Made by a program: the position numbers and the translations under genes. A stretch of DNA of 64,000 bases from Thermoplasmata archaeon (lineage in GTDB: Archaea; Thermoplasmatota; Thermoplasmata; Halarchaeoplasmatales; Halarchaeoplasmataceae), in NCBI GenBank assembly GCA_046540335.1, contig JBKHFH010000003.1, positions 6,954 to 70,953 on the forward strand. The letters run 5' to 3'. Below the pieces are notes generated by a model. That model was not told the DNA's origin. It did no database searches and worked only from the letters and a program-made list of their open reading frames with translations. This document shows positions 6,848 through 61,866 of this stretch, piece by piece. Each line of letters begins with the position of its first letter. Within the stretch, counting starts at the first letter, position 1.

Positions 6848-7031
6848 CCAATTACCTAAATGTAATAGTATTAAATAAACTTTACGAATTAATTATTATT
6901 GTTTTCTTAAATAGAACAATATATTACGATATTCGAGCTTTTTTTTGCGATTTATTTGGAAACGTCTCAGTTGTGATCGGGATAGAATCCTTCAAAAAAT
7001 ATATCTAATCATTCTAGCATACGAATATCGT

Positions 7032-8144: not shown

Positions 8145-8214
8145 TCCGGATACGCAAGATTTATTAATTCTTAATCCATGGCTGATTCCAGATAGAGTTA
8201 AAAAAGGTGAAATT

Positions 8215-19121: not shown

Positions 19122-19319
19122 ATGTCAACAACGATCCAGATAGAGAAAGAAACGAGAGAAAGGCTGAAAAGATTTGGACATAAAGGAGAATCCTATGACG
19201 AGATAATAGAGCGGTTGATGAACTACTGCGACGAATTGGACATGGAGGAGTTCATAGAGGCAAGGTGGAAAAGACTCCAGGAAGAAAAAGATGAATATCT
19301 CTCAGTGGACGAGATATAG
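19122..19319 (+). CDS. RelB-like (archaeal aRelB-type) antitoxin
   Basis: 65 aa; IQIEKETRERLKRF..GESYDEIIERLMN resembles archaeal RelB antitoxins; the stop lies 1 bp before the toxin ORF. Confidence 0.55.
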   Translation: MSTTIQIEKETRERLKRFGHKGESYDEIIERLMNYCDELDMEEFIEARWKRLQEEKDEYLSVDEI

Positions 19320-19320
19320 A

Positions 19321-19627
19321 TGAAAGTAGTTATACATCCAAGGGTTCAGAAATACATTGAAAATGATAGAGAAATAAAAACTCCTTCCATCCTCAAAAAT
19401 AAAAAATTTTCTGCGGATAGTGGGAAAAAGAAAGACTGGTCAAACATCTAAAAAGATTGGCTGATGGTCCGTATAACAGTAGGAGTGGTGCCGATATCAA
19501 GAAATTAAAAGGAAAAAAACATGATATGTATAGATTGGGGATCGGGGGTCATCGATTCGAGTATTTTGTCGAAGAGGGAAAAGTCTGGATCGATGAAGCT
19601 TTTCAGAGAGGGAGAGGGTATAGATGA
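19321..19627 (+). pseudogene. RelE/ParE-family toxin gene disrupted by a +1 frameshift
   Basis: Frame 1 (19321-19455) encodes MKVVIHPRVQKYIENDREIKTPSILKNKKF...; frame 2 (to 19627) encodes ...IKKLKGKKHDMYRLGIGGHRFEYFVEEGKVWIDEAFQRGRGYR. Joined, these parallel archaeal RelE (MTYRVKIHKQVVKAL...VIKLEGTGDLDLYRARLGDYRVIYSVN...KPRGRAY). The frame switch lies in an A-rich stretch near 19420-19455. Confidence 0.55.
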
Positions 19628-30649: not shown

Positions 30650-31273
30650 TCAACCTTTCCGGAGATGCGTAACATCTCCCGAGACGAACTTTTCACCGCT
30701 CTCTAGCACGAGTCTCCCTCTCTCATCTATATCTTCTACCGTGCCTTCAATTTGCCCATTCTGTGTTCTTATCTTGACCCGTTCTCCGATGGTTGAAGAA
30801 TAATTTTTGTAGGTGTTCAACAGATCCTCTATCCCATAAAAATTGGAGATGATATCTTTCATCAGTTTATCTAAAGAGTATTCGTTTCTGTTAATATCAT
30901 AGATGCATATACTATCGGATAAAGGAGCGGATTCAACATTGAGACCTATACCTACGATACCTCTTTCATACGCGATCTCTGTCAATATACCACATATCTT
31001 TCTCTCTTCTACCAAAACATCATTAGGCCATTTGAGTTCTGGCTCCATACACAATTTCTCCAATGTCTTTGCGACTGCGACCGAAGCTTTCAGAGGTAAA
31101 AGATCTTCTTTTTCAGTACATAAAGAAAAATAGAGGTTTCCGGGAGGTGATTCCCATGAACGATCTTTTCTTCCTTTTCCATCGGTCTGTCTTTCCGCTA
31201 GAACTACGAAATCATCGGTTTCTTCATCCAATAACTCCTTGGCTACCTCGTTGGTCGAACCCGCCTTTTCCAA
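30650..31273 (-). CDS. birA: Biotin--protein ligase (BirA catalytic domain, no DNA-binding domain)
   Basis: AERQTDGKGRKDRSWESPPGNLYFSL matches the BirA Q.aGRGR.GR.W.Sp.G.Ly.S biotin-binding loop. Confidence 0.85.
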   Translation of the reverse strand: MEKAGSTNEVAKELLDEETDDFVVLAERQTDGKGRKDRSWESPPGNLYFSLCTEKEDLLPLKASVAVAKTLEKLCMEPELKWPNDVLVEERKICGILTEIAYERGIVGIGLNVESAPLSDSICIYDINRNEYSLDKLMKDIISNFYGIEDLLNTYKNYSSTIGERVKIRTQNGQIEGTVEDIDERGRLVLESGEKFVSGDVTHLRKG

Positions 31274-31297
31274 TCTGTATACCTTTATGAGATCCCC

Positions 31298-31627
31298 TCA
31301 CATGAAGGTCGGAGGTGAACTTACGGTTACATAGGAGGCCTTTTCGCCTCCCACGTTTTCAGCGTGATGAGATACGTCAGATGGATGCCATAGAGTATCA
31401 CCTTCTTTCAACCTATGGACTTGATCACCTACAAAATAATCGATCTCTCCTTTCAAAACGAGATGGATCTCTTCACCTCTGTGACAGTACTCTTCAGATT
31501 CAGCACCGACTTCCAGTTCCGCGATTATTGCCTCCATCTCACTTGATTTCTGCATCAGCCGAAATATTTTTCCATCGACTTCCTCCCTCTCTTTTTCTTC
31601 TCCTTTTCTTACCAATTCACATTCCAT
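31298..31627 (-). CDS. Cupin-domain protein
   Basis: HRGEEIHLVLKGE...GDTLWHPSDVSHHAEN carries the two-motif cupin signature. Confidence 0.7.
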   Translation of the reverse strand: MECELVRKGEEKEREEVDGKIFRLMQKSSEMEAIIAELEVGAESEEYCHRGEEIHLVLKGEIDYFVGDQVHRLKEGDTLWHPSDVSHHAENVGGEKASYVTVSSPPTFM

Positions 31628-31631
31628 AATA

Positions 31632-32732
31632 TCACCCTACTAATCCTATCAAGATTCCAGCTGCGGTAGCGGAGCCGATCACTCCAGCGACGTTAGGTCC
31701 CATAGCGTGCATCAAAAGGTGGCTGCCCGCATTTTCCTCCTGTCCCATCTTTTGAACTACTCTCGAAGCCATGGGAACTGCGGAAACTCCAGCAGCTCCG
31801 ATCATGGGGTTGATCTTTCCTCCCGATATCTTGTAGAACAGCTGGCCGAAGAGTGTCCCACCGGCGGTCGCGGTTGCGAACGCGAAGATTCCCAATAATA
31901 GTATCTTTATGGTGGACAGTCTGATGAAAGTACCGCCAGTCATCAGAAAACCGACTCCTAATCCTAACATTATCGTAGCTATGTCCATGAGGGCATTACC
32001 GCCAGTATCGGACAGTCTGTCCATCACGCCCGAAGTCTGGAACAGATTGCCCAGCATCAGCATACCTATAAGTGGGAGCGCCGAGGGCACTATGAGGCCT
32101 ACAATGATGGTCACACCTACAGGGAAAATTATTTTTTCCAACTGACTGACTTCTCTCATCTTGCCCATCTCTATGCTACGCTGTTCTTCTGTCGTTAATG
32201 CCTTGATTATCGGCGGCTGGATTATAGGTACTAGAGCCATATAGCTGTAAGCTGAAACAGTCACCGCCGCGATTATCTCAGGTCTATCTCCTACGAGTTT
32301 TGTGGCCGCATAGATCGCCGTAGGTCCGTCCGCCCCACCGATGATGCCAATAGAGGATGCTGCGCTTAAATCAAAACCGATAAGAAAGGAAAGACCAAGA
32401 GCTAGAAAGATTCCAACCTGAGCCGCTGCCCCGAGCAAAAAGGTTTTGGGATTCGCCAAAAGAGGCGAAAAGTCGGTCATCGTTCCTATTCCTAAGAATA
32501 TTATCAATGGGATTATACCAGTGCCCACCCAATCATTGTATATAGTGTATAGTAGTCCAGTCTCTCCAGTTATACCGGTGAGCGGTAAATTCGCAAGGAC
32601 AACAGTAAAACCTATCGGCCCCAATAAAAGAGGCTCCATCTCTTTAGCTATACCCAGATAAACCAGCAGAAGACCGATAGCTATCATGAGGGCCTGTTGC
32701 CAGGTCATCGCAAAAAGGCCGACCTCGAACAT
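31632..32732 (-). CDS. oadB: Na+-translocating decarboxylase beta subunit (OadB/GcdB family)
   Basis: N-terminal ...LLLVYLGIAKEMEPLLLGPIGFTVVLANLP and overall polytopic topology are characteristic of the Na+-pumping decarboxylase beta subunit. Confidence 0.85.
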   Translation of the reverse strand: MFEVGLFAMTWQQALMIAIGLLLVYLGIAKEMEPLLLGPIGFTVVLANLPLTGITGETGLLYTIYNDWVGTGIIPLIIFLGIGTMTDFSPLLANPKTFLLGAAAQVGIFLALGLSFLIGFDLSAASSIGIIGGADGPTAIYAATKLVGDRPEIIAAVTVSAYSYMALVPIIQPPIIKALTTEEQRSIEMGKMREVSQLEKIIFPVGVTIIVGLIVPSALPLIGMLMLGNLFQTSGVMDRLSDTGGNALMDIATIMLGLGVGFLMTGGTFIRLSTIKILLLGIFAFATATAGGTLFGQLFYKISGGKINPMIGAAGVSAVPMASRVVQKMGQEENAGSHLLMHAMGPNVAGVIGSATAAGILIGLVG

Positions 32733-32909
32733 CTATTTTTCACCTCCGACCTGAATAGCTGCGACCATCGCCGCTACTTTTTCATCATCATCTTCTTCAA
32801 CAAAATATCTATCGATGAGCCAACCGAAAAAATACGTAACTAACGTTAGTATACTGAGGGTGAGAAAAACAACGCCTAGGCCGATAAGAATAACTTCTAA
32901 AGCGGTCAT
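32733..32909 (-). CDS. oadG: Oxaloacetate decarboxylase gamma subunit (small membrane anchor), not in the ORF track
   Basis: 58-aa ORF MTALEVILIGLGVVFLTLSILTLVTYFFGWLIDRYFVEEDDDEKVAAMVAAIQVGGEK: single TM with GLGVVFL and a C-terminal VAA..AAI motif like OadG; lies exactly between oadA and oadB. Confidence 0.65.
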   Translation of the reverse strand: MTALEVILIGLGVVFLTLSILTLVTYFFGWLIDRYFVEEDDDEKVAAMVAAIQVGGEK

Positions 32910-32911
32910 GA

Positions 32912-34723
32912 TTATCCTACCATGGTTGCTATAATATCATCTTCTTCTACGTCTTGACCTTTCTTCACGTGTATGTCCTTTATTTTACCATCAGTCGGTG
33001 CCGAAACATCGTTCTCCATCTTCATCGCTTCTAGGATCGCTACCGGTTCTCCCTCGCTGACACTGTCTCCAGGGCTGACCTTCAACTCAAGTATAGTCCC
33101 GAGCATCGGTGAATTTATCTCTATCTCTTCGCCACTCACCTCTTCCTGTCCTTCATCAGAAGTTCCGGACGGTTCTGGTTGTTGACCTTCGGGATACAGT
33201 ACGGAAATGTCGTATGTCTTTCCATTGACCCGAACTTTGTTCTTGTTTTTCATCACAACATCGTACTTCTGACCGTTGATCTCCACTTTCCCTTCCCACG
33301 GATAGCTTACCTGTCTGGAAGTTTTCTGTTCTTCTTTTTCCAATTCAGTTTCCAGTGGAAGATCTTCAGAGTAGAATTCTGCTTCGACTTCACCCTTCAG
33401 GAATTTGAGACCTATGTCAGGATAGATGGTGTAGGTCAAAACGTCCTCGGGTTTTTCCAGTAGGCCGTTGTCTTCCAGGAAGTCCTTGTTCTTTTCGAAC
33501 TGGGGCTCTAACAAGCTCGCGGGCCTCTCATCTATCACTTCGTCTTCCCAATCAGGGCCCAATATCTTTTCGTACATCTCTTCCGATATCTCTCCAGGGG
33601 GTCTCCCGTACATACCCCGGAAATACTCTTTGGTATCGTTGGTTATCTTTTCATAGCGGCCGAACTTCACGTTCATAACGGCCTGAACACCGACAACTTG
33701 AGAGGAAGGTGTGACGAGAGGTGGATGCCCGAATTCTTCTCTAACCTTCGGTACTTCTTTCAATACTTCTTCGTATTTATCCGCAGCACCTTGTTTTTCT
33801 AACTGGCTGACCAGATTGGAAAGCATACCGCCAGGGATCTGGTGTACAGTTACTGAGGGGTCTATCCTCAAAGCTTGATCTCGGTGAAGATGTCTATATT
33901 TTTCCCAGACCTCGTTGAAATATTCTCTTATCTCCATTAGGAGATCCATATCATAACCCGTGTCGTGTTCGGTGCCTTGTACCGCGGCCGTTACCGATTC
34001 TGTCGGGGGTTGTCCTGTCGCTCCTGTTAGAGAAGAAAAGGAAGTGTCCACGACATCGACACCAGCTTCGATAGCCTTCATGTAAGCCATACCGGTCATA
34101 CCGGACGTGTTGTGACTATGAAGATCTATAGGTATGTCGATTCCCGCGTCTTTACATCCTTTTATAATATCATAGGCTCGCGGAGGCGATATCATCCCCG
34201 CCATATCTTTGATACATAGAGAATCACACCCTATCTTTTCTAATTCTTTGAACTTTTCCACGTACTGCTCAACAGTATGTATCGGCGATATGGTATAACA
34301 GAGTGAACCTTGAACGTGAGCCCCTTCTTTATTGGCCTGTTCTATAGGGACCTTCATGTTCCTCAGATCGTTCAGCGCGTCGAAGATCCTGAAGCTGTCA
34401 CACCCGTTCTCATGAGCGTAGTGTATGAATTTTTTAACCACATCATCTGGAAAGTTCTTGTAAGCGACTATGTTCATAGCTCTTTCCAACATCTGGGTCC
34501 TGGTATTCGGCAGCGCATCGCTCAGTTTGTTCAACCTCTCCCACGGGTCCTCGTCCAAATATCTGATACAGGCGTCGAAGGTGGCTCCACCCCATATCTC
34601 CATAGAGTCGAAACCCACTTGGTCCATCTTGTCGCATATAGGCAGCATATCTTCCGTTCTCAACCTTGTAGCGAGAACGGACTGATGTGCATCTCGCAGA
34701 GTCTGATCATGAAGTTGTACCAT
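32912..34723 (-). CDS. oadA: Oxaloacetate decarboxylase alpha subunit (5S carboxyltransferase + biotin carboxyl carrier domain)
   Basis: N-terminal MVQLHDQTLRDAHQS (pyruvate carboxyltransferase TIM barrel) and C-terminal biotinyl domain with EAMKMEN biotinylation motif; adjacency to oadG/oadB argues for the membrane decarboxylase rather than PycB. Confidence 0.8.
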   Translation of the reverse strand: MVQLHDQTLRDAHQSVLATRLRTEDMLPICDKMDQVGFDSMEIWGGATFDACIRYLDEDPWERLNKLSDALPNTRTQMLERAMNIVAYKNFPDDVVKKFIHYAHENGCDSFRIFDALNDLRNMKVPIEQANKEGAHVQGSLCYTISPIHTVEQYVEKFKELEKIGCDSLCIKDMAGMISPPRAYDIIKGCKDAGIDIPIDLHSHNTSGMTGMAYMKAIEAGVDVVDTSFSSLTGATGQPPTESVTAAVQGTEHDTGYDMDLLMEIREYFNEVWEKYRHLHRDQALRIDPSVTVHQIPGGMLSNLVSQLEKQGAADKYEEVLKEVPKVREEFGHPPLVTPSSQVVGVQAVMNVKFGRYEKITNDTKEYFRGMYGRPPGEISEEMYEKILGPDWEDEVIDERPASLLEPQFEKNKDFLEDNGLLEKPEDVLTYTIYPDIGLKFLKGEVEAEFYSEDLPLETELEKEEQKTSRQVSYPWEGKVEINGQKYDVVMKNKNKVRVNGKTYDISVLYPEGQQPEPSGTSDEGQEEVSGEEIEINSPMLGTILELKVSPGDSVSEGEPVAILEAMKMENDVSAPTDGKIKDIHVKKGQDVEEDDIIATMVG

Positions 34724-37342: not shown

Positions 37343-38341
37343 ATGGGGATTTCATATCCTGAAGAGAGAACTGAAATAACTCTAGATTCCAATGAAAACC
37401 TGCTGATGCCAGAACGATACTACGAGGAGATAAAGGATGAGATGGATTTTGAATTTAGAAATTATCCATCCCCCACAGCTAAAGAATTGAAGAGAAATAT
37501 CGCCGACCATTATGGATTGAGCGAAGAACAGGTGACCGTAGGAAACGGATCTGACGCTATCCTGGATACCATCGTCAAGAGTTTCTCAACTGGTGAACAC
37601 GTCTTAGGGTACTTCACCCCTTCATACGAGATGTATCCCTTTTTTTCTTCCCGAAACCAAAGAAAGTCGATCGAGATCCCCTTGAACGGAGATTTCTCCC
37701 TGCCCTCGCTGGATAATTATCTGGAAGAAGTGGACGTCCTTATTATCTGTTCACCGAATAATCCCTCCGGTATCACCGTGGACCGGAAAAAAATAGAATC
37801 TATATTAGATGAAGATGTTCTGGTAGTGGTGGACGAAGCTTATGTGGAATATTCCGATCAAAATCTTCTCCCTTTACTCGATGAACACGATAATCTGTTT
37901 CTTGTAAGGACATTTTCAAAAGCATGGGGTCTGGCCGGTATAAGGGTGGGCTACGCCTTGAGTTCTGCAAGAAGAGGGATCGAACTACTTGAAGACATGC
38001 TGCCGTACAATGTCAACTCTCTTTCTATCGAGGCGGCTTTGTCTGCCATCGATAAAAAAGACATGATGAAAGAGGCTGTAGAAAGGACAATCCAGGAAAG
38101 AAACAGACTTTCCATGGAATTAGAAAACCTCGGCTTCAACCTTCTGCCTTCAGAAACCAATTTCGTATTTTGTAAAAAGCCTGGTTCCATCGAGACCTCA
38201 GATCTATACCGTGAATTACTTGAAAGAGGTATAAGAATAAGGAAATTCGACCACCCATCACTCGCTGACAACGTAAGGATCACTATCGGTGATGAAGAGG
38301 GTAATAACCGTCTTTTAGAGGCACTTGATGAGATCCTTTAA
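37343..38341 (+). CDS. hisC: Histidinol-phosphate aminotransferase-like class II PLP aminotransferase
   Basis: LDSNEN..., NYPSP, and PLP-lysine region FSKAWGLAGIRVGY match the HisC family; internal ATG at 37343 chosen. Confidence 0.75.
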   Translation: MGISYPEERTEITLDSNENLLMPERYYEEIKDEMDFEFRNYPSPTAKELKRNIADHYGLSEEQVTVGNGSDAILDTIVKSFSTGEHVLGYFTPSYEMYPFFSSRNQRKSIEIPLNGDFSLPSLDNYLEEVDVLIICSPNNPSGITVDRKKIESILDEDVLVVVDEAYVEYSDQNLLPLLDEHDNLFLVRTFSKAWGLAGIRVGYALSSARRGIELLEDMLPYNVNSLSIEAALSAIDKKDMMKEAVERTIQERNRLSMELENLGFNLLPSETNFVFCKKPGSIETSDLYRELLERGIRIRKFDHPSLADNVRITIGDEEGNNRLLEALDEIL

Positions 38342-38589
38342 ATTATCTCGAGAATATCTAATATCCTTCTCATGACTATACCCGTGAAGACAACGATACC
38401 AACTTGGATGAACACGTCAAGGCGGTAAGCTATCGATGGTCTTATATATACACTCGAGAGCTCTCTAGCTATCAAGATTCCGATGAGGATCATGATAACG
38501 AAAAGTTCAGTGCTATGAGTTCCGACTAGAAGGAGGACAATGCCGGTCCAGATCGCTATCAAAAGTGTTAATTTTTGAGAAAAAAGCAT
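38338..38589 (-). CDS. Small hydrophobic membrane protein
   Basis: 83 aa, three predicted TM helices; start overlaps the stop of the upstream 263-aa gene. Confidence 0.4.
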   Translation of the reverse strand: MLFSQKLTLLIAIWTGIVLLLVGTHSTELFVIMILIGILIARELSSVYIRPSIAYRLDVFIQVGIVVFTGIVMRRILDILEII

Positions 38590-39380
38590 CAGACCTCCTC
38601 CAATTCAAATTTTATATGTCTTCCTTGCACTTCGAAATCTACGACTTCGAGAGGCTGAGACAAAGACTCGGCAGCAGCAATCAAATAAGCGCTACAGATG
38701 GGACAACCGGTTCTTGTACATATATCAGTAGAAACGTTTCTAAGACTCTCACAATATTCAAGATATCTACCATGAGTGATCCTTACATTTATCTTTGAAT
38801 CTTTCTCTCTAAAGCTGAAAGATCTAGCGAGTCCCATACCTTCACTCAGATGACCCATGCATTCTCTTCCGCTCTCTAAACCTCCTCTCTCTATCCCATA
38901 TTCCAACCGATCTTTTGCTTCTCGCAGCAGCGGCAATCCGGGTGGATTGACCGAGATACCGACTTTTCCACTACCAGATGAAACGATGGTCATCTCATCG
39001 TAAAGATCTGGAAGATCTTTCAGTTCTCCCGCTGGAACATATACTCTTGATTCTGTAAGATTATCATTAGGAGGTACATGAACACCCTTATCCGCCACGT
39101 CTAAATCTGCGAGGATATCATGATAAGTGAGAACCCCACTTTTCAGCCCTGCTAAAGAAACATCCTCCTCTACGGTCGGGTAATTGATTATCAAGATGGT
39201 GAAAATCCCTATGAAGCCCGATGCCAACGCCGCATTGAGATGGTCAGTTTTAAAGAATAGATATATCGATATACATATGAATATGATCCCTGTAATCTTG
39301 GAACTGTACTCTGGTCTCAGGTACCTGGGTTTCTCCATATTCTTAAAGTAAAATAACCTATATATTAAAATTATCGACAA
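38589..39380 (-). CDS. Membrane-anchored hypothetical protein with C-terminal Cys-containing domain
   Basis: Two N-terminal TM helices then a 200-aa soluble domain (..ICTRTGCPICSAY..); no recognisable family. Confidence 0.45.
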   Translation of the reverse strand: MSIILIYRLFYFKNMEKPRYLRPEYSSKITGIIFICISIYLFFKTDHLNAALASGFIGIFTILIINYPTVEEDVSLAGLKSGVLTYHDILADLDVADKGVHVPPNDNLTESRVYVPAGELKDLPDLYDEMTIVSSGSGKVGISVNPPGLPLLREAKDRLEYGIERGGLESGRECMGHLSEGMGLARSFSFREKDSKINVRITHGRYLEYCESLRNVSTDICTRTGCPICSAYLIAAAESLSQPLEVVDFEVQGRHIKFELEEV

Positions 39381-39443: not shown

Positions 39444-39683
39444 TCACCATCTGTCATATCCATCGGTCTGGCCATCATCTCGATCCCTTCCTGACTGGAA
39501 GCTAGATCCCGGTGGTTTTGATAAAGCGGATTTCACCATCAATAAAGTGAATATAGAAAGTAGAAAAAACACAACTATACTTTTTTCTGGACCTATCTGT
39601 AAAAAACCTGAAAGATAGAGTATCCATAACAGAGCCAAGATGAAACCAGCTGCGAGATACATCTTCAATATATTAGGATGCAT
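39444..39683 (-). CDS. Small membrane protein
   Basis: 79 aa, two TM helices, charged tail. Confidence 0.3.
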   Translation of the reverse strand: MHPNILKMYLAAGFILALLWILYLSGFLQIGPEKSIVVFFLLSIFTLLMVKSALSKPPGSSFQSGRDRDDGQTDGYDRW

Positions 39684-39805: not shown

Positions 39806-42800
39806 TCAAAGTTCATATTTATCTTCTCTTTTATTTATTTTTTCTCTACCGAGCTCTCTCTCCAGTTCACTCAAACTCTTACCTTCATCACTTATCTCTT
39901 TAGGTCTCCAGAAGATTTTATCAAAGAGGACTATGATAGCTATAGCGACTATCGTCGTGATGATCCACCAATTCTCTCTCAATCTCTCTGAAAAACTGTC
40001 TTTCTCGATTTTAATTTCCATACTATCCACTGCATTGTTGCCTGCCTCGTCCCAAACTCTGACTTCTATGGTGTGCTCACCCTCTTCAAGTCCGTCAAAA
40101 AGATATTTTGTTTCTTTCCCAACTTCGATCCACTCTCCTCCATCGATCCTTACTTCATACTTTTCTACACCTGACCCATCATCGTAGCCCTCCCAGCGGA
40201 CCCTAATGTTGTCCTCACTCAAGGACTCACCGTTTTTAGGTTCCAATATCTGAATGACTGGCTCAGTCACATCTACTGTGAATGTGACATTATCTTTTAC
40301 TACCTTTCCAGTCTCATCCGCTGCTCTAACATAAACCTCGTACTCGCCCTCTCTAAGATCTGTCAGATTATATTTTTGGCCTGTACCAGCTCTGTTCCAT
40401 CTACCGCCACGTATGCTCACAAAATGTTCCTCAGTATTTTGAGATGTCCACTCCACCGTGACATCGCGGCTGTTAATAGACGCAGCCTCATCTGGCCCCT
40501 TTATTTCCAACTCGACTTTCCTGACACTGAAGCCTACACTGTCATACTTGATATAACCCTCTCCGTCAACAGCCCGAACACTCAGCTTGTAATCACCATC
40601 CTTTAGATCGCTAAAGGTGTACTCTGTTTTGGTACCTACATCTCTCCATTCAGTGGACTCATTATCTCTTCCTTCAAGTCTTATCTCGCTGTATTCCATA
40701 TTTCTTGCCTTCCATTCCACCCTCACCTTTGATCTCCTTTCTATACTCGATGGCCTAGGAGCCTTTATCTCTACAAATACATCGGTTTCAACTTTGAATT
40801 CGACCGAATGGGATGCTGTCTCTTCATCATCTTCTACTATCACCTCAACAGTGTGATATCCATCATCTAAATCTTCAAAAGTATATTCACTCATACCTCT
40901 AACATCTATCCAAGCCCCTCCGTCTAATCTGATTTTCGCATCAACATTCCTTTTCCCACCTTTTAAAGCCCATCTTACATCAACTTCAGATGAGAAAATC
41001 ATGTCTTTATCTCTAGGGTCAATGATGGATACACTGAGTCCATCTACAGGGTCGGTATCTATCAAAGGATACCTGTCTTTGCTGCTATCCCCCATGATCT
41101 CATATGAAATATTCCAGAAGCCGGATTTTGGAGCTTCACCTGCTTCAGGATACCGTATGGCGTAGTTGGACCAATAATTACCCTCCATTTTATGATCCCA
41201 GATATTCCCACCTGTGTCATAAGCTAAACTCTGCTCTTCTAAGCGGGGGTGATCGGCTCTAGTGATATCATTGTGATATATCTTATTTTCATCTGAATTG
41301 ACGACATATAATCCATAAATATCGTTGTTGTAGAATTCATTACCGAAAATAATATTCTGCTCAGAGTATGAAAGGTATGCTCCGTGTATCTGATTATGAG
41401 AGATATTGTTCTCCGATATCGTGTTCTTGTCTGAATCAACCATGTACAACCCTAGATAGTTGTGTTTTATCCTATTGCCCTTTAGGACGTTTCGGTCAGA
41501 ATATCTAAGGGTGATACTCAGACTCTGATCAAATAGAGTATTGTTGACTATCTCGTTACCTTCCGAAAATCCAAGGGTCACACCCAACTTTCCGGACTCT
41601 ATTTCTTTATCCTTTATTACTAAATTGGTAGAGTTCGCTATGAGGATTTGACCAGCGTCTTCTTCAATGATAGCACCGTCTTCATCTACATCCCCATCGA
41701 TATTTTTAAGATAATATATCCGTTTTCCATTCGACAAAGTGTTGTTGTCAGGAATAAAGTGTGTGTTCCAGTATTCGATAGACCGACCTCTCAAATTAAT
41801 ACCTCCCTCATTGAATCTGTTATTGTAGATACTATGGTTTTGGGAAGTGAAGAGTGTTAGACCATAGCCCCCATTATCTGAAAAATTACTAGTGCTGACT
41901 CTGTTACTCTTTGAAGAGAAAAACATCATCCCCGTGCCCCGATTATGCATCATGTTGTTATTTAAAAATAAATTTTTTTCGGAAGACCTAATATAGGCTC
42001 CATAGACATTGTTAAAAGAATGGAGATAAGAAATTTCATTTTCTTCTGAATCATCCATATATATACCGAAGAATCTGTTTTTATATAAGCTCATTCCGTT
42101 GACTTGGTTCATATTAGACTCTTCAAATTTTAGCCCCCTACTGTTGAAAGAAGCATTGTTTTCCTTTAACAGGTTTTCATCAGAGTTCTCCAGTAAAATC
42201 CCTTCGTCGCTGTTGATAACGCTGTTACCTGTTATATCATTGTTGTTAGAATCATCTAAAAAAATCCCATGACCATAGACAGGATGATAGGACTTTCCAA
42301 CACTGTTGTTTTCAATAGTATTTCCTTCTGATGAAGACAGATGGATACCAACATGATTATTCAAAGCTCTATTATCTTCAATTGTATTTCCGCTGGAATT
42401 TTCTAATAAGATCCCACAAGAATTTAGCTCTATCTTATTATCTATGATCAATCCGTTTTTTGTATCAGCCAGATAGATACCACTAGTCCCTGATCGTGCA
42501 TCTCGGCTGCGGTTGGCATTATAGAGTCTATTATCCCTTATTATAAAATGTGAGTCTACATCCTCGATAAAAATGGGAGAAGATTTTTCACCACCGTCTA
42601 TAGCATAACCTTCAATGAGGAACGGGTCTTCTTCGGTACCACTCCCTAACCATCCGTTTTGTTCAACCTTTGTTTCAAATTCCTCATCATCCTTTATATG
42701 TATAGGATTTATCTCTGAATACTCGGAAACATCCTCATTATCTTCGGAGAGTCTAATAGATTGAGAATCAACCCGCCTAGAGGATTGAGTGTCTGTGGTT

Positions 42801-45154
42801 TTCAATTCTGAGCTTTTACTGTTGAAGACGGTGAGAGCATAGTCCTGATCTAAAGAGCCATCGTCGGTTCCATCTTCAGGTATGTTGAACCCCTCGACCT
42901 CAACGCTATATTTACCATCTTCTGTTTCTCCGGGTCGGATATAGACGTTCTCCACATTGTTTGCATCGTCCCATCCATCCCCGTTCCTATCGAAATCTTC
43001 TATCGCATTAGAACCGGATGGAGTCCAACTCTGGGAAAATGCATTACCTCTATACGTTTTTCCACTAGGAGAAGTAACTTTCAGGTTGAGATCATTTTTC
43101 AAGGCCACATGGTCTTCGGATTCAGCGTTTTTATCAGTCCAAGCAAGAGTTATCTTCAAAGGTTCTCCCCTATCATCACACTCAAATTCATACTTCTGGC
43201 TCTCTCCACTTTCAACCGTCCTTGATTGATCTTCAACGGAAAATGGTATAGGACTGTCTTTCGGATATTCGAGTTTAGATATATCAACCATGCCCCAGCC
43301 TTCGTCTTTATTTGGAATAGGTTGGCTTCTATATCCATCACCTTTCAGATCCTCAGCAGTATTTATCAGAAGGGCTTTCACCATCGCCGGACTCGGCCTC
43401 TCATTGAATTTTTCCTCATACCACTCCACTACGATCGAAGCGGCTCCGGCAACAGCGGGATTTGACATAGATGTTCCTGATTTCCAATCGTATGTCGGTC
43501 CATCAAAAATACTAGATGATCCTAAAGAAAGAACATTTTTCCCTGGAGCGACAACATCTGGCTTTACTCTGTTATCTTCCGTCCACCCGCGTGAACTGAA
43601 CCCAGCGATACTGGAAAGTTGATGGGAATTTCCACCTCCATAATCATTACCATCCGGCATATAGGTTTCTGTCGCGCCAACAGTGATGACATTCTTCGCA
43701 TTGCCTGGACTTCCAGTGGTTTGTTCTATCGGCCCCGAATTCCCGGCAGAGACCGTTATAACCATGGGCTCTGACCGATCTGTCTCTCTGTTAGCATCCC
43801 TCACAGCCTGATCGAAGACACTTTCTAGATCAGTGTACTTTCCACCTGTACTAGCTCCCCAAGAATTGGAATGGATATACGCATCGGACTCCTGCTTCGG
43901 TTTTTCAAAGATAGGATAAAAGTTATCATCTTGTAGTAGAAAAGTACCTGCATCGCTGAACATCTTTACCGAATAAAGTTCTGAATTATAGGCAAGACCC
44001 TGTCCCATCAGGTAATCTCCAAAACCAGGGTACTCTCCATCTTCTCCACTACCGTGATATGTATCACCTGCGGCAGAACCTGTCACGTGAGTACCATGCC
44101 CGTGGCCGTCTGCCCAATCTTCTTGATCCAGCTCTCCGAAAGCATATCCTCCCTTCACTCTCTCAGTTAAATCCGGATGGCCTGAATCACCTATGGTTCC
44201 GTCTCCAATACCCGTATCTGCTATGGCTATGGTGACTCCGTCCCCACTGTATCCCATCTGATTTATATATGCTCCAAAATCCCCGTATTTCCTGTAGGGT
44301 ACGTCAGGGTCCCCATAATCGTCCTCGATTAAATCTATCCCACCGCCGATCACCTGGCTTTCCACTTCGGAATGTAATTCAGGTTCGATCCTGTTTGAGA
44401 GACTATATAAATCATCAAGGTGAGCCCAGCGCTTTAACTCTTTGGTAGAACTAACATTCAATGTTAATTCTTTCCAACCGTTCTCTAGTTCTCTAGAGTT
44501 CAACACTGGTGTTTTAAGTGTATTTTCTCTGATCTGTCTTTCAGGATCGCTGACGAACTTAGCGTTCACAGTACCAGTATCTATATCCTCAGGTATCTTA
44601 TAAGCGGGATGATAAAGACCTATCCAATCAACGAAAGATTTATCCTTTACTCTCTCTGCCTGCTCAGGAGTCATCCTCACTTCATAGGCATAGTTTGGAA
44701 CATAGTTCAAAAACTCCACCCCCTGATCTTCAATTTCTCTTCTCCATTCAGGATCGATGGGACCCAGCATATGGATTAGATAGAGACCTTCCTGTCCGGA
44801 CTCGTACCCATCTATTTCCATATCAGGTGATATATCCGGTCCTTCTTCGATATCAAAGTTATATCCTCTGATGAATATCTCCTTCCTAGAGGGTAAATTA
44901 TTGATCTCAAAACCTCTCTCAATAAGACTCCGCTTTTCTTTTTCATCACCTCTAAGTAGAGCTTTTTGTTCGTAAGTTGCTATAACTTCCAAATCGCTCA
45001 ACCGATCTATACTCTCCCCATCATCAAAACTTACAAGAAATATGTCGTCCTTTTCAGAAGGAAAATGAGGGACCTCTATCACTACAAAAAAACCAGAAAT
45101 CATGACCAACAAAACGCATACATATGCTTTGATTCTATCTTTTTGTTTATCCAT
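39806..45154 (-). CDS. Giant membrane-anchored cell-surface protein: signal anchor, subtilisin-like S8 peptidase, parallel beta-helix repeats, four Ig/Fn3-like domains, C-terminal TM
   Basis: 1782 aa. S8 catalytic triad context ADTGI (Asp), HGTHVTGS (His), GTSMSNPAVAG (Ser) at about aa 310-570. More than 20 PbH1-type repeats (N.I..N....GI.L..S..N.I) at about aa 840-1360. Four ~90-aa repeats ending ...EYTF.DL.DG.Y...V.A.D. C-terminal hydrophobic helix WWIITTIVAIAIIVLF plus charged tail. Confidence 0.85.
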   Translation of the reverse strand: MDKQKDRIKAYVCVLLVMISGFFVVIEVPHFPSEKDDIFLVSFDDGESIDRLSDLEVIATYEQKALLRGDEKEKRSLIERGFEINNLPSRKEIFIRGYNFDIEEGPDISPDMEIDGYESGQEGLYLIHMLGPIDPEWRREIEDQGVEFLNYVPNYAYEVRMTPEQAERVKDKSFVDWIGLYHPAYKIPEDIDTGTVNAKFVSDPERQIRENTLKTPVLNSRELENGWKELTLNVSSTKELKRWAHLDDLYSLSNRIEPELHSEVESQVIGGGIDLIEDDYGDPDVPYRKYGDFGAYINQMGYSGDGVTIAIADTGIGDGTIGDSGHPDLTERVKGGYAFGELDQEDWADGHGHGTHVTGSAAGDTYHGSGEDGEYPGFGDYLMGQGLAYNSELYSVKMFSDAGTFLLQDDNFYPIFEKPKQESDAYIHSNSWGASTGGKYTDLESVFDQAVRDANRETDRSEPMVITVSAGNSGPIEQTTGSPGNAKNVITVGATETYMPDGNDYGGGNSHQLSSIAGFSSRGWTEDNRVKPDVVAPGKNVLSLGSSSIFDGPTYDWKSGTSMSNPAVAGAASIVVEWYEEKFNERPSPAMVKALLINTAEDLKGDGYRSQPIPNKDEGWGMVDISKLEYPKDSPIPFSVEDQSRTVESGESQKYEFECDDRGEPLKITLAWTDKNAESEDHVALKNDLNLKVTSPSGKTYRGNAFSQSWTPSGSNAIEDFDRNGDGWDDANNVENVYIRPGETEDGKYSVEVEGFNIPEDGTDDGSLDQDYALTVFNSKSSELKTTDTQSSRRVDSQSIRLSEDNEDVSEYSEINPIHIKDDEEFETKVEQNGWLGSGTEEDPFLIEGYAIDGGEKSSPIFIEDVDSHFIIRDNRLYNANRSRDARSGTSGIYLADTKNGLIIDNKIELNSCGILLENSSGNTIEDNRALNNHVGIHLSSSEGNTIENNSVGKSYHPVYGHGIFLDDSNNNDITGNSVINSDEGILLENSDENLLKENNASFNSRGLKFEESNMNQVNGMSLYKNRFFGIYMDDSEENEISYLHSFNNVYGAYIRSSEKNLFLNNNMMHNRGTGMMFFSSKSNRVSTSNFSDNGGYGLTLFTSQNHSIYNNRFNEGGINLRGRSIEYWNTHFIPDNNTLSNGKRIYYLKNIDGDVDEDGAIIEEDAGQILIANSTNLVIKDKEIESGKLGVTLGFSEGNEIVNNTLFDQSLSITLRYSDRNVLKGNRIKHNYLGLYMVDSDKNTISENNISHNQIHGAYLSYSEQNIIFGNEFYNNDIYGLYVVNSDENKIYHNDITRADHPRLEEQSLAYDTGGNIWDHKMEGNYWSNYAIRYPEAGEAPKSGFWNISYEIMGDSSKDRYPLIDTDPVDGLSVSIIDPRDKDMIFSSEVDVRWALKGGKRNVDAKIRLDGGAWIDVRGMSEYTFEDLDDGYHTVEVIVEDDEETASHSVEFKVETDVFVEIKAPRPSSIERRSKVRVEWKARNMEYSEIRLEGRDNESTEWRDVGTKTEYTFSDLKDGDYKLSVRAVDGEGYIKYDSVGFSVRKVELEIKGPDEAASINSRDVTVEWTSQNTEEHFVSIRGGRWNRAGTGQKYNLTDLREGEYEVYVRAADETGKVVKDNVTFTVDVTEPVIQILEPKNGESLSEDNIRVRWEGYDDGSGVEKYEVRIDGGEWIEVGKETKYLFDGLEEGEHTIEVRVWDEAGNNAVDSMEIKIEKDSFSERLRENWWIITTIVAIAIIVLFDKIFWRPKEISDEGKSLSELERELGREKINKREDKYEL

Positions 45155-45299: not shown

Positions 45300-45749
45300 A
45301 TGAACAGAAAAACTGGATATGTTATTCTGGCCGTTGGGCTCGCTCTTTTGCTGTTCACCTTCTATTTGGCGATACAAGCTTTTCTAGGTGCAGAATATAT
45401 TCAAAATTTTGAGGACCTAGTAGTAACCAATCGAGAAGGTGTGGCAGCACTTGTAGATGTGCTGATATATGTGATCCCTATCCTCTTATTGGTTGTGATG
45501 GCTTCTATCGGAGGCAAAGTTATGCACTACGGGATCAAACTGATAAGAACTCCAGATCCTAAGACACTGGACGAAAAAAGGGAAGAAGAGAAAACAGCTC
45601 CTCCTAAAAGAGTTAAAAGGACCACATCCCCAAAAAATAAAACACCACCACCTCCACCCAAAACCGATCAAACGAAAGGTGGAGAAAAAGAGACACCGGA
45701 ACCTCCCGAACCTCCGGAACCTCAAAGTCCTTCAGAAACGGAGCAATAA
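45300..45749 (+). CDS. Membrane protein with proline-rich low-complexity C-terminal tail
   Basis: Two TM helices followed by ...KNKTPPPPPKTDQ...PEPPEPPEPQSP tail. Confidence 0.45.
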   Translation: MNRKTGYVILAVGLALLLFTFYLAIQAFLGAEYIQNFEDLVVTNREGVAALVDVLIYVIPILLLVVMASIGGKVMHYGIKLIRTPDPKTLDEKREEEKTAPPKRVKRTTSPKNKTPPPPPKTDQTKGGEKETPEPPEPPEPQSPSETEQ

Positions 45750-57621: not shown

Positions 57622-59118
57622 ATGTCAACTTACGAAGACCTTCTCGAAATTTCTGAGCAGTTAAGAAACATCCAGCGCTCACTTTACCTTCTAGCCTGGG
57701 ATGAACGAACGTATATGCCCGAGGGAGCCATCGAAGGGCGCTCTGAGAGCAAAGCCCATCTCTCACAGCTGTATCACAAAAAATTAACTTCGGAGAAAAC
57801 GAAAAAGATAATAGATGAGCTGAACAAAGAGTCCACTCAAGCGGAAATGGACGAAGTGCAAAGAGCCGCGGTCAGGGAAATGACTAGAGATTTCCAGAGA
57901 AGATACAAAGTACCGGAAGAACTGATAAAGAAGATGTCTAAAATTTCAACTAAAGCTCAGTCCGCTTGGGAAAAAGCCCGTGAGAAATCGGATTTCGAGC
58001 TTTTCTTGCCTCATTTAGAGAAGCAGATAGAAGTTAAGAAAGAGGTGGCGGAATACATCGGTTATGAGAATGAACCATACGATGCGCATATCGAGGAGTT
58101 CGAACCGGGATTCACGGCCGAGAAGATAGATAAAATCTTTGAACCCATGAAAGAGGAACTCAGCTCGATGGCCAGTGAAATATTTTCTAAAGAGTTAACA
58201 CCTGGTGAAGATGTCTTTGAGGGTAAAAAATTTGATGTTGAAAAACAGAAAAAAATCGGTAGAGAGATAGCTGACGAGTTCGGTTATGATTTTGAGCACG
58301 GAAGATTGGATGATGCTGTCCATCCATTCACGATAGGGATGGACGACGATGTGAGGATAACCAACAGGTATAACGAAGAAAACCTCAACTCGCTCTTCAG
58401 TCTTATGCATGAGACCGGTCATGCCCTCTATGAGCAGGGACTACCATCAGAATGGTACGGACATCCTTTAGGGCGAAGGATATCTAGCGGATATCACGAA
58501 TCCCAATCTAGGATGTGGGAAAACTTCGTAGGGAGAAGTAAAGAATTTTTGAATTACCTGTTCCCGAAACTGTGTGATGAGTTCCCGAAGTTGGATGAAT
58601 ATTCTAAAGAAGATTTCTACAATAGGGTCAATCGAGTTGAACCAACCTTCATAAGGGTGGACGCTGACGAAGTCACCTATAATCTCCATATAGCTCTACG
58701 TTTCGATCTAGAACTGGGGCTTTTCAGAGGAGAAATGGAACCCGAGGAAACTAAGACTGTGTGGGAAAACAAGATGGAAGAATATCTTGATATAGTTCCA
58801 GAAGATCCCGCGAACGGAGTTCTTCAAGACATACACTGGTCCAGCGGGCAGTTCGGCTACTTCCCGAGTTACGCTCTAGGAAACCTCTTCGCGGCTCAGA
58901 TATACCACACCGCGGAAGATGAAATAGATGGTCTAAAGGATAAAATATCACAGGGCGAATTCCAACCGTTGAGAGAATGGTTGAAAGAAAATATTCACCA
59001 GCAAGGCAGGATGTACAAATCTGAGGAAATGACCAAAAGACTGACCGGTGAAGGATTGAACGAAAAGTACCACATAAATCATCTCAAAGAGAAGTTTGGA
59101 CCGATATACGAACTGTAA
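57622..59118 (+). CDS. M32 carboxypeptidase (Taq carboxypeptidase family)
   Basis: HETGHALYEQG (HExxH), HESQSRMWEN, and IHWS.G.FGYFPSY motifs diagnostic of the M32 family. Confidence 0.88.
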   Translation: MSTYEDLLEISEQLRNIQRSLYLLAWDERTYMPEGAIEGRSESKAHLSQLYHKKLTSEKTKKIIDELNKESTQAEMDEVQRAAVREMTRDFQRRYKVPEELIKKMSKISTKAQSAWEKAREKSDFELFLPHLEKQIEVKKEVAEYIGYENEPYDAHIEEFEPGFTAEKIDKIFEPMKEELSSMASEIFSKELTPGEDVFEGKKFDVEKQKKIGREIADEFGYDFEHGRLDDAVHPFTIGMDDDVRITNRYNEENLNSLFSLMHETGHALYEQGLPSEWYGHPLGRRISSGYHESQSRMWENFVGRSKEFLNYLFPKLCDEFPKLDEYSKEDFYNRVNRVEPTFIRVDADEVTYNLHIALRFDLELGLFRGEMEPEETKTVWENKMEEYLDIVPEDPANGVLQDIHWSSGQFGYFPSYALGNLFAAQIYHTAEDEIDGLKDKISQGEFQPLREWLKENIHQQGRMYKSEEMTKRLTGEGLNEKYHINHLKEKFGPIYEL

Positions 59119-60141: not shown

Positions 60142-61866
60142 TTAGTCCTCTCTAAAGACATTATCCAATTCTTCATCGGAAACATCGAACACTGTGTTGT
60201 GTGGCGGAAGTTCTTCTTTTTTCATAAACTCGGGCATCCTGTCGTCTTCTTTAGAGAAGCCCGCTGCTTTGTTAAACTCTCTCTCCATCTTTAGGATATC
60301 CATGCCCATCTCCATGACTTCTTCTGTGGAATAGTCGGTTCCCAAGACTCCATTTACAGTTTCTATCATCCCTTCCATTCCTTCGTTTATATCCATAGTT
60401 GCGAACGCGATGAATAAACAGTAGCCAGCTGTATCGATCATCGCGGTAGCCTGCTGAAGTGATTTAGAAAGATCCGCCTTTTCAGTATCCATCGGATCGG
60501 CTTCTCCACCGACGCCCATTATTTCTGGGGCGATAGCGTAACCAGCGGTGTGGTCCGCGCCCATCGGCGTAGTCGCATAAGTCACACCTATACCTTTTAT
60601 AGCTCTCGGATCATAAGCTGGCATGGCCTGACCCTTCACTGTTGGAATCCGGTTGACCCCGAACGCTTCTCCTGTGAATTCTGCTCCGTTCGCCAGTATT
60701 CTACCTAACGGCGTTTTATCGTAAATCTCGTCCATCAATTCTAAGGCTTTTTCACCGTCACCGAAATCTAAGAGACCGCCTTCCATCGCAACAGCTAAAG
60801 TATTTCCCGCCTCTATAGTATCTAGACCTAGATCGTTGCACGCACGGTTAAGTTCTCCTATAGTGTCTAAATCATAGATACCGCAGTTCGGACCTAGAGA
60901 CCAAACTGACTCGTATTCAAGAACCCCAACAGGATCTTCACCGCCTTCTTTCGTCCATATCTCCGAACACTGTATTATACAGCTAGGGCTGCACTTGTGC
61001 GGTCTTACACCGCCTCTCTCTTCGATAAGTTCTGCTTTCCTCTCACCGGAGACCTGCGATGATCTCTCGTCGCTGCCCTCTGAGAAATTCCTTTGGGGGA
61101 GGGCGCCGCTCTCGTTTATTATGTTTATAAGAACTGAAGTTCCGTAAGAATTCAATGCGCCGTCTTTTTTAGTGACGTCGTGTTCCATAAGAGCATTGGC
61201 CAATTTTTTTCGACCCTGATCGAATGTCTCTTTGTCCTTTATCTCTTTCTTGTTTTCATCTGTGTTAGCTGCGACAATAAATTTCAGACCTCGTGAAGCC
61301 ATCACAGCTCCTAGTCCTCCTCTGCCTGAATATCTGCTCGATCTTCCTTCCGGATCAGTGAATGCGATGCCGGCGTTTGAAGCATTCAGTTCGGCCGCAA
61401 TACCTGCTCCAGCTATCTCTATATCTTCTTCGAACTGTTCATGTAGTTCGACATAGGCGTCGTACAGTCCTTTTCCGACCCATTCGTCAGCCTCTATCAG
61501 TTCTTCCTTTCCATCTCCAACTTTTAAGAGATAGTACTTGTCTTTTTCCGGCTTACCTTCAACTATTATGGCTTTGATCCCGTTCCGGGCTAGATTCCGG
61601 GCGAATGGTGTTCCGGCATTAGATTCTTTTATTCCTCCTGTAAGAGGGGATTTACCTCCTGCTGAAAGTCTTCCTGAATTTGGTGCGCCGGTTCCCGTTA
61701 CTATCCCTGGTGCAAGAACTAGTTTATTGTTCGGTCCTAACGGATGTGCGTTGGGTGGGACCTCCTCTGATACTATAGTCGAGGTAAGGCCTCTTCCTCC
61801 TAATTTTTCATAATCCTCAGGGACTTCTTCTTCTTTAATCTCCAGGTTCTCCATATCGACTCTCAA
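60142..61866 (-). CDS. Aldehyde:ferredoxin oxidoreductase family tungsto/molybdopterin enzyme, second paralogue (FOR/GAPOR-like)
   Basis: GKSPLTGGIKESNAG pterin loop; N-terminal domain plus two pterin-binding domains; clearly divergent from the first aor (574 aa). Confidence 0.8.
   Translation of the reverse strand: MRVDMENLEIKEEEVPEDYEKLGGRGLTSTIVSEEVPPNAHPLGPNNKLVLAPGIVTGTGAPNSGRLSAGGKSPLTGGIKESNAGTPFARNLARNGIKAIIVEGKPEKDKYYLLKVGDGKEELIEADEWVGKGLYDAYVELHEQFEEDIEIAGAGIAAELNASNAGIAFTDPEGRSSRYSGRGGLGAVMASRGLKFIVAANTDENKKEIKDKETFDQGRKKLANALMEHDVTKKDGALNSYGTSVLINIINESGALPQRNFSEGSDERSSQVSGERKAELIEERGGVRPHKCSPSCIIQCSEIWTKEGGEDPVGVLEYESVWSLGPNCGIYDLDTIGELNRACNDLGLDTIEAGNTLAVAMEGGLLDFGDGEKALELMDEIYDKTPLGRILANGAEFTGEAFGVNRIPTVKGQAMPAYDPRAIKGIGVTYATTPMGADHTAGYAIAPEIMGVGGEADPMDTEKADLSKSLQQATAMIDTAGYCLFIAFATMDINEGMEGMIETVNGVLGTDYSTEEVMEMGMDILKMEREFNKAAGFSKEDDRMPEFMKKEELPPHNTVFDVSDEELDNVFRED

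Follow-up and report, generated by a model that had tools for sequence, protein, structure and literature searches.

The window analysed here, a stretch of 64,000 nucleotides from a Thermoplasmata archaeon (assembly GCA_046540335.1, contig JBKHFH010000003.1, positions 6,954 to 70,953 of the forward strand), carries on its minus strand a complete gene (39806..45154, stop codon included) for an apparently active, membrane-anchored extracellular protease of family S8 that is combined with a beta-helix and immunoglobulin (Ig)-like modules. This description holds for the domains, the residues and the predicted topology of the protein. As to its function, we favour with moderate confidence a surface-tethered subtilisin-type protease of halophilic Thermoplasmata that feeds the cell.

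The open reading frame (ORF) runs from an ATG at 45154 to 39806 and encodes 1782 residues; its coordinates agree exactly with those of the first-pass annotation. A residue-for-residue identical protein is present in three independent assemblies (Logan SRR19844286, Logan SRR19844287 and the NCBI metagenome-assembled genome (MAG) GCA_046539565.1), and therefore the gene is not an assembly artefact. The identical NCBI entry (P0001) bears the automatic name ‘MAG: NosD domain-containing protein [Thermoplasmata archaeon]’. The pI of 4.5 and the net charge of -152 fit a salt-in halophile. According to Kyte-Doolittle hydropathy the protein contains exactly two hydrophobic segments, residues 6-33 and 1725-1750. 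As these segments are found only at the extreme N- and C-termini, everything between them should lie on one side of the membrane, and because a subtilase with a pro-region belongs outside, we place the bulk of the protein outside the cell. The individual parts, all given below in minus-strand coordinates, were delimited with two structure models (residues 28-800 and 790-1782) and with domain searches in which Pfam matches down to E<=0.1 were considered and NCBIfam was also searched.

The protease head and its pro-region

The S8 subtilase catalytic domain occupies residues 299-625 (43280..44260). Pfam Peptidase_S8 (PF00082) matched residues 304-621 over profile positions 1-288 of 288, with an E-value of 1.1e-42 and 146.8 bits against a cutoff of 21.8. 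D313 (44216-44218, in an ADTG motif) aligned with the catalytic Asp of the bacterial subtilase KP-43, and H353 (44096-44098) and S562 (43469-43471) aligned with its HGTH and GTSM motifs (GTSMS in our protein), the order Asp/His/Ser being the same; N472 (43739-43741, in AGN) is the oxyanion-hole Asn. All four codons were checked. Thus, the intact Asp/His/Ser triad claimed in the first-pass annotation aligns with KP-43 as well as falling within a strong match to the S8 profile. In an alignment of 44 homologous sequences (residue numbers of the protein equal the alignment numbering + 27), D313, H353, N472 and S562 were invariant in 44/44, and judged by this conservation the S8 head is very probably enzymatically active.

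The catalytic domain is followed by a beta-jelly-roll (residues 626-775, 42830..43279) that packs on the protease as in KP-43 and in the archaeal subtilase Tk-SP. The region is all-beta in the model and is covered up to residue 760 by the alignment to KP-43 (1WMD); a Pfam search with the jelly-roll alone gave no match. In phmmer, residues 299-760 matched residues 16-423 of 1WMD with an E-value of 1.5e-54. The head model (residues 28-800), which was built on the 44-sequence alignment and has a mean predicted local distance difference test (pLDDT) score of 84.9, matched 1WMD in Foldseek with an E-value of 4.2e-42, a TM-score of 0.88 on the target, an rmsd of 3.1 Å and 32% identity. The next matches were SubHal and then Tk-SP. 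The protein is therefore assigned to family S8 and, inside S8, to the KP-43-like group with jelly-roll.

Compared with these enzymes, our protein shares the core and differs in what surrounds it. The catalytic domain and jelly-roll of KP-43 and SubHal (1WMD, 5FAX), both alkaline and oxidatively stable enzymes from Bacillus, align continuously with residues 299-760, but KP-43 is a secreted, soluble, bacterial protein without beta-helix, Ig repeats or membrane anchor. Tk-SP from Thermococcus kodakarensis (3AFG, 9UES) is likewise an archaeal subtilase and has both a propeptide and a C-terminal jelly-roll (E 1.8e-22 by sequence and 8e-32 by Foldseek, the latter over 644 columns including the propeptide; identity 21-26%), but it has a single propeptide unit and neither stalk nor anchor. 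The halolysins of haloarchaea (SptA, Nep and relatives), compared here by their description, are small extracellular S8 enzymes, extended at the C-terminus, that extreme halophiles secrete through Tat and release. In contrast, our protein has no twin-arginine motif, is membrane-anchored and has KP-43 and Tk-SP as its nearest solved relatives.

Between the N-terminal segment and the catalytic domain lies a pro-region (residues 29-298, 44261..45070) of three tandem propeptide-like units and a conserved junction. In the AlphaFold model (m71484cb8df59, pLDDT about 75-95 in this part), residues 37-254 form three successive beta-alpha-beta-beta-alpha-beta units with the subtilase-propeptide fold. 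The junction EPELHSE..SQ.IGGG (residues 257-273) is the most conserved junction in the 44-sequence alignment. A Pfam search with the pro-region alone gave no match. By fold, the pro-form of Tk-SP (3AFG, the 644 columns mentioned above) and that of subtilisin E (3WHI, 522 columns) aligned with the head model over spans exceeding the catalytic domain and jelly-roll alone. An exhaustive search with residues 28-299 found 1681 cluster representatives at E<=1e-3, 96 of them at E<=1e-30, and nearly all of these have the pro-region at residues about 30-310; the longest of the proteins reach 4316 residues. During maturation of KP-43, Tk-SP and subtilisin E the propeptide chaperones folding, inhibits the enzyme and is then cut off; KP-43 carries a long N-terminal prepro-region.

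The N-terminal part itself (residues 1-28, 45071..45154) combines a basic start with the first hydrophobic segment, which has its hydropathy peak at residues 6-33; the homologues show the same arrangement. It is a candidate Sec-type signal peptide or signal anchor, and the first-pass annotation had called it the latter. Tat export was rejected, as there is no RR in the first 30 residues, and a lipoprotein was rejected, as the lipobox context around C13 is absent. With neither a twin-arginine motif nor a lipobox, the protease is probably exported by the Sec route.

The stalk, the anchor and the cytoplasmic tail

The head is connected to the rest of the protein by a Ser/Asp/Glu-rich linker (residues 776-815, 42710..42829) that is predicted to be disordered (pLDDT <50 at the end of the first and the start of the second model). 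In the paralogues P0005-P0009, three extra Ig-like domains are found at this position. The linker leads into a right-handed parallel beta-helix (residues 816-1372, 41039..42709). In the second model (residues 790-1782, mean pLDDT 81.9) the helix has pLDDT values mostly >90, and both the model and the sequence periodicity yielded about 20 coils between residues 845 and 1313, with three strands per coil and a period of 22-23 residues. The helix is interrupted by one insert of roughly 45 residues (1120-1165) and closed by a C-terminal cap, GNYWSNY...YPL. Pfam NosD (2.6e-61, 207 bits) and Beta_helix (2.8e-46) matched at roughly residues 830-1331, and the NCBIfam parallel beta-helix repeat TIGR03804 matched with 3.2e-42. 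The long beta-helix of the first-pass annotation and its fold are thus well founded, but the count of more than 20 PbH1 repeats comes down to about 20 coils.

The same annotation had likened the helix to pectate lyases. Both share the fold class of the right-handed parallel beta-helix, but the family is a different one. A single-sequence phmmer search of the PDB gave a marginal match to NosD (E 0.034); with a profile made from six orthologous segments, the best match was NosD 7O0Y (E 9.8e-12, the GNYWSDY cap included in the match), and further matches were 8WM1 and the alginate C5-epimerases AlgG (E about 5e-7) and AlgE (about 0.02). This profile search returned NosD and alginate epimerases and not pectate lyases, and pectate-lyase, pectinesterase and glycoside-hydrolase Pfam families had no match in the protein at E<=0.1. 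Foldseek with the C-terminal model was uninformative for the beta-helix. Because the profile favours NosD 7O0Y and pectate-lyase families are unmatched, the element is best called a beta-helix of about 20 coils of NosD/CASH type. NosD, a periplasmic protein of N2O-reductase maturation, is its closest solved relative. Our protein is nevertheless not NosD in the functional sense: against the NosD family TIGR04247 it scored 83.5 bits, the cutoff being 300, so that only the domain-level Pfam NosD and Beta_helix models were passed, and nosZ, nosF, nosY and nosL were absent both from the orthologous loci and from the annotated ORFs of the window.

The relation to alginate epimerases raises the question whether the helix could be a second enzyme. 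In that case the protein would be bifunctional and degradative, the beta-helix being a carbohydrate-active CASH domain (lyase, epimerase or hydrolase) and the two activities together attacking glycoprotein or exopolymer matrices. Besides the profile matches to AlgG and AlgE, three residues without an obvious structural role do not vary among 12 orthologues: H934 of the motif NNH.G, and K954 and Y960, which both belong to a lengthened turn. However, the top-scoring NosD is no carbohydrate-active enzyme, the lyase and hydrolase families stayed unmatched as described above, the invariant residues mostly belong to the Asn/Gly/Ser ladder of the fold itself and a catalytic motif was not identified in the beta-helix. 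We therefore regard a second activity as very unlikely.

The beta-helix is followed by four tandem Ig-like beta-sandwich domains that make up the membrane-proximal part of the stalk (residues 1373-1718, 40001..41038). The model places them at residues 1373-1458, 1459-1546, 1547-1631 and 1632-1718. Self-alignment showed 26-38% mutual identity and the common motif W..G.W..VG...Y.F..L..G...V.V...D, in agreement with the four motif-sharing domains of the first-pass annotation. Pfam matches to Y_Y_Y, Big_13, Big_7, Ig_J and fn3 fell within residues 1470-1720. Foldseek of the C-terminal model against the PDB and BFVD found only generic tandem Ig/Fn3 chains (GhpA, NCAM and phage tail proteins) with TM-scores of 0.1-0.3.

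A single transmembrane helix near the C-terminus (residues 1729-1750, 39905..39970) corresponds to the hydropathy peak at residues 1725-1750 and is a long helix in the model. It is followed by a 32-residue cytoplasmic tail (residues 1751-1782, 39809..39904) with the sequence SLSELERELGREKINKREDKYEL, which contains an SL.ELE.EL motif and ends in K-Y-E-L. The helix and the tail had both been recognised in the first-pass annotation, which had also noted that a PGF-CTERM signal is missing; this is correct, as NCBIfam PGF-CTERM did not match, there is no PGF directly before the C-terminal transmembrane helix and the only PGF of the protein, at residue 376, lies within the S8 domain. An LPxTG motif is absent from the whole protein. 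Substrates of archaeosortase A with PGF-CTERM therefore differ from our protein, which has the conserved 32-residue tail instead of a short basic one. The tail is more strongly conserved than its small size would suggest: [ST]L.ELE.E[LH] and the end [DEK]-Y-[KRE]-L-COOH were found in 11/11 members of the beta-helix orthogroup (our protein and P0002-P0011). P0012, a relative that is not acidic, lacks it. This conservation implies a cytoplasmic partner. A sorting signal shared with other proteins was considered for the tail and rejected, as the ending Y-[KRE]-L occurs in no further ORF of the window or of the orthologous loci L004 (P0002) and L005 (P0010).

A pre-pro S8 head on a multi-domain, C-terminally fixed stalk is likewise found in the cell-envelope proteinases of Gram-positive bacteria (PrtP, ScpA/ScpB, SpyCEP), and C5a peptidase (3EIF, E 3e-8) and SpyCEP (6VJB) matched our protein weakly by sequence and fold. 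The stalk of these proteinases consists of Fn3 domains and a helical spacer, whereas ours consists of a beta-helix and Ig-like domains. Furthermore, the PA-domain insertion of lactocepin and C5a peptidase was unmatched at E<=0.1, and the anchor is a transmembrane helix with a tail and not LPXTG. Gram-positive cell-envelope proteinases are thus analogues, and our protein is not a member of that group.

The first-pass annotation had also seen a resemblance to SPEARE proteins. The defining parts of these proteins, which belong to Nanohaloarchaeota, are one or more laminin-G domains and a cytoplasmic type III restriction-enzyme region, their most conserved part, and their length is 3,300-8,500 residues (PMC6642349). 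The resemblance stands for the gross topology: SPEARE proteins, too, are found in hypersaline archaea, have most of their chain, including a serine protease and adhesion-type domains, outside the cell, and end in a transmembrane helix and a cytoplasmic C-terminus. The family assignment does not stand, as our protein lacks laminin-G (at E<=0.1) and any ResIII/helicase match, has a tail of 32 residues and, with 1782 residues, is 2-5x shorter. Among the named matches of our homologue search there was no SPEARE protein; a direct sequence comparison was outside that search. Read as a SPEARE-like protein of cell-cell interaction, it would be an adhesin-protease that attaches to hosts, prey or partners and opens them. 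Apart from topology, this is suggested by the Ig repeats, which match bacterial adhesins and the grappling hook GhpA by fold, and by a diversification into paralogues (see below) that is typical of interaction proteins. Against it, the Ig-fold matches are generic, as their TM-scores indicate, and the SPEARE host is a DPANN symbiont, whereas the lineage of our protein is metabolically complete; the window encodes the metabolism of a free-living cell and not of a reduced symbiont (gluconeogenesis, ATP synthase, an oxaloacetate decarboxylase (OAD) sodium pump and aldehyde:ferredoxin oxidoreductases (AFORs)). We thus consider an interaction protein in this sense highly improbable. That the protein combines attachment with proteolysis is plausible as a pair of putative roles.

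The head family and its host lineage

Full-length relatives of the protein (P0002-P0011) are 43-56% identical to it, and many more proteins match only its first ~790 residues (41-46% of the query). When species-representative genomes (one genome per species) were scanned with the head alignment as query, 464 loci with a relative of the ~790-residue head were found. The best 80 of these 464 loci come from 29 assemblies, nearly all of them Thermoplasmata MAGs (Ca. Halarchaeoplasmatales), with up to 7 loci per assembly (PWHR01, PUNG01). The gene in the window is an intact, correctly read member of this family; tblastn with three modules of the protein as queries found no paralogues within the window. 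We know of no cultured member of Ca. Halarchaeoplasmatales. Source names among the best 80 (B1Sed10, T1Sed10, CSSed, GSL, NA-30cm) suggest sediments of soda lakes and of Great Salt Lake.

The named sources of relatives include Ca. Natronoplasma and Ca. Saliniplasma, genera of Ca. Halarchaeoplasmatales within the class Thermoplasmata. The closest relatives that carry an organism name were all Thermoplasmata/Thermoplasmatota MAGs or genera of this order, except for a few bins labelled Aenigmatarchaeota or Dehalococcoidia. One ‘Candidatus Aenigmatarchaeota’ MAG (JBKHKA01, isolate D5M12_30, contigs up to 176 kb) holds five head loci (L008, L013, L016, L048 and L080), and a 2.5-kb contig of a ‘Dehalococcoidia’ bin (PWUO01) holds another (L082); both labels probably reflect misclassified or mis-binned Thermoplasmata DNA. 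Halarchaeoplasmatales have been counted among the four archaeal lineages with an independent adaptation to extreme salinity (10.1101/2024.03.10.584303). The first-pass annotation had pointed instead to surface proteins of uncultured marine archaea. The link to these is loose: 1-4 genes for extracellular S8 proteases are indeed present in MGII genomes, and such proteases have been inferred to feed MGII Thermoplasmatota (PMC6864105), but the organism-named closest relatives of our protein are, apart from the few bins just mentioned, halophilic Thermoplasmata.

The head is combined with different middle parts and ends. According to precomputed Pfam lists, the middle parts of the homologues include beta-helix, PQQ-type beta-propeller, CARDB, PKD and coiled coil. 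Classified by their C-termini, the 120 best homologues comprised 32 with a transmembrane helix and an acidic tail, 10 with a transmembrane helix and a tail containing CxxC...CxxC, 11 with a transmembrane helix and a tail of ~30 residues ending in Y-[KRE]-L, 15 with a transmembrane helix and a short basic tail, 13 with a PGF-CTERM-like end and 39 without a C-terminal anchor, 16 of which end in W.V.Y. A hydrophobic C-terminal anchor (transmembrane helix or PGF-CTERM-like) was thus present in 81/120, consistent with a surface-displayed head. The PGF-CTERM-like ends (P0033, P0044, P0092, P0093 and nine others; for example ...ETPGFTLIPMVLIAAVLAVAIYYKKVK) predict that the same head is attached via the archaeosortase route too. 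The zinc-ribbon-like CxxC...CxxC motifs, sometimes repeated, occur in long cytoplasmic tails of ten paralogues (P0015, P0020, P0023, P0024, P0027, P0030, P0088, P0097, P0105 and P0117), an unusual feature for surface proteases. A rough neighbour-joining order computed from the catalytic and jelly-roll parts placed our protein and the other ten with a Y-[KRE]-L end side by side, with P0012 adjacent, whereas PGF-like ends, anchor-less ends and other beta-helix proteins were scattered.

Such numbers could mean that the family is structural. The S8-headed proteins would then be the main surface coat (S-layer-like, or glycocalyx spikes) of these probably wall-less Thermoplasmata, with the stalk as the structural part and the protease serving maturation, turnover or protection of the envelope. 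In addition to the many paralogues (464 loci overall, up to 7 per assembly among the best 80), the anchors are typical of archaeal envelope proteins, the 13/120 PGF-CTERM-like ends included, and Foldseek touched the bacterial S-layer proteins EA1 (8OPR) and SbsB (4AQ1), with low TM-scores. Archaeal surface-layer proteins often contain Ig-like repeats and beta-helices of the NosD/CASH type. On the other hand, N-x-S/T sequons for N-glycosylation, a possible glycoprotein signature, were not enriched and stood at the shuffle expectation in every domain; the strictly conserved catalytic residues argue for selection on proteolysis itself; and a pro-region of 270 residues is not normal in S-layer proteins. 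We consider this envelope role unlikely. A broader version, in which the S8-headed set is a lineage-defining collection of modular ‘protease-tipped spikes’ that jointly form the envelope of Ca. Halarchaeoplasmatales, and in which the tails (Y-K-L ends, zinc ribbons) couple events at the surface to a cytoplasmic partner, is in our view quite unlikely. If it were true, it would be a surface architecture undescribed for any archaeon.

Our literature searches on Halarchaeoplasmatales/Haloplasmatales and proteases turned up no account of the head family; the founding paper of the order was outside these searches. The sequence of our protein is already public under its automatic name, and surface-displayed subtilases as a kind are well known. 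What appears to be new is how the parts are combined: a KP-43-like head behind a triple pro-region, carried by a NosD-type helix and four Ig-like domains, and ending in a transmembrane helix whose tail is conserved. The expansion of the head family across the lineage, with the head shuffled onto different stalks and anchors, also appears to be new.

Gene neighbourhood and the proposed role

In the window and in the loci L004 and L005, the protease gene is followed by genes for the membrane proteins DUF7982 (249 residues) and DUF8044 (83 residues) and then by Cdc48. The shared gene order in three genomes speaks for orthology, not for an operon. DUF7982 and DUF8044 lie just downstream on the same strand (window 38338-39380, minus strand; L004 13963-14963; L005 15158-16169), the DUF7982 assignment being taken from a precomputed table as the local Pfam copy gave no match. 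We claim neither an operon nor a functional link with the protease, as Cdc48 and other housekeeping genes are equally syntenic and a beta-lactamase gene intervenes in L005. Between protease and DUF7982 is an ORF for a predicted small membrane protein of 79 residues without family (39444-39683, minus strand). On the other side, a divergent ORF (45300-45749, plus strand) encodes a predicted membrane protein of 149 residues without family, which has two hydrophobic segments and a tail rich in Pro, Glu and Lys. On either side the neighbouring genes have housekeeping functions (Lhr helicase, an aminotransferase, Cdc48 and an oxaloacetate-decarboxylase-type sodium pump).

The window encodes two AFORs (8137-10092, plus strand; 60142-61866, minus strand), an M32 carboxypeptidase (57622-59118, plus strand), an aminotransferase and a Na+-solute symporter, a set consistent with catabolism of peptides and amino acids by fermentation. 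A molybdate-transporter-like gene (6945-8144) lies directly upstream of the first AFOR. The genes of the biotin-dependent Na+-pumping decarboxylase (30650-34723, minus strand) adjoin a biotin-protein ligase gene and encode an alpha subunit of 603 residues with carboxyltransferase and biotinyl domains, an OAD_beta of 366 residues and a gamma subunit called in L001. A Rad50-like (803 residues, AAA_23/SMC_N) and Mre11-like (439 residues, Metallophos) pair is located at 95-3822 (minus strand), and the first 2 kb of the window have an extreme strand composition (GC skew -0.385, AT skew -0.383). A gene for a rhomboid intramembrane serine protease is present at 3926-4858 (plus strand); rhomboids cleave single-pass membrane proteins. 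Two small ORFs (19122-19319 and 19457-19627, plus strand), in a stretch otherwise free of ORFs of at least 120 residues, resemble, judged by eye, a ribbon-helix-helix antitoxin and a fragment of a RelE/ParE-like toxin. No tRNA genes or Rfam families were found in the window.

For the feeding protease we envisage the following sequence of events, in which the export route, the autoprocessing, the geometry of the stalk and the nutritional role are what we infer. The pre-pro-enzyme would be synthesised and exported via Sec, and its three N-terminal propeptide-like units would aid folding of the catalytic domain and hold it inhibited. The enzyme would then cleave off its own pro-region, and the N-terminal hydrophobic segment would be lost with it. 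In the mature protein, the KP-43-like head would be joined covalently through the flexible acidic linker to the rigid stalk of the ~20-coil beta-helix and four Ig-like domains, and one C-terminal helix with its short conserved tail would anchor it as a type I membrane protein. From general structural knowledge, ~4.8 Å per coil gives an estimated length of roughly 10 nm for 20 coils, and four Ig-like domains may add up to about 15 nm. The head would thus stand ~20-25 nm off the membrane, where it could cut extracellular or particle-bound protein to peptides that are taken up and fermented. The NosD-type beta-helix would be a spacer and possibly a surface that binds glycans or particles.

Several observations weigh against this scheme. 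The N-terminal segment has no obvious small-residue signal-peptidase site, and the protein would be anchored at both ends if the segment were neither cleaved nor removed by autoprocessing; the processing site at the EPELHSE junction is guessed. A role in feeding alone leaves the strict conservation of the cytoplasmic tail unexplained. The protease gene stands alone among housekeeping genes, and an adjacent peptide transporter is absent. Finally, simple nutrition would hardly seem to call for as many as 7 paralogues in one assembly, given how diverse their stalks are.

For the single gene in the window the outcome is more modest than for the family, although we can propose a function for it with reasonable confidence. 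The head (residues 29-775) is compact and well predicted, and would lend itself to expression as a relative of the industrial protease KP-43 that is adapted to salt and possibly to alkali. The hundreds of copies of this head on interchangeable stalks and anchors suggest that protein degradation at the cell surface is central to the ecology of the order in soda- and salt-lake sediments, and the family provides the first concrete candidates for the composition of the cell surface of Ca. Halarchaeoplasmatales.

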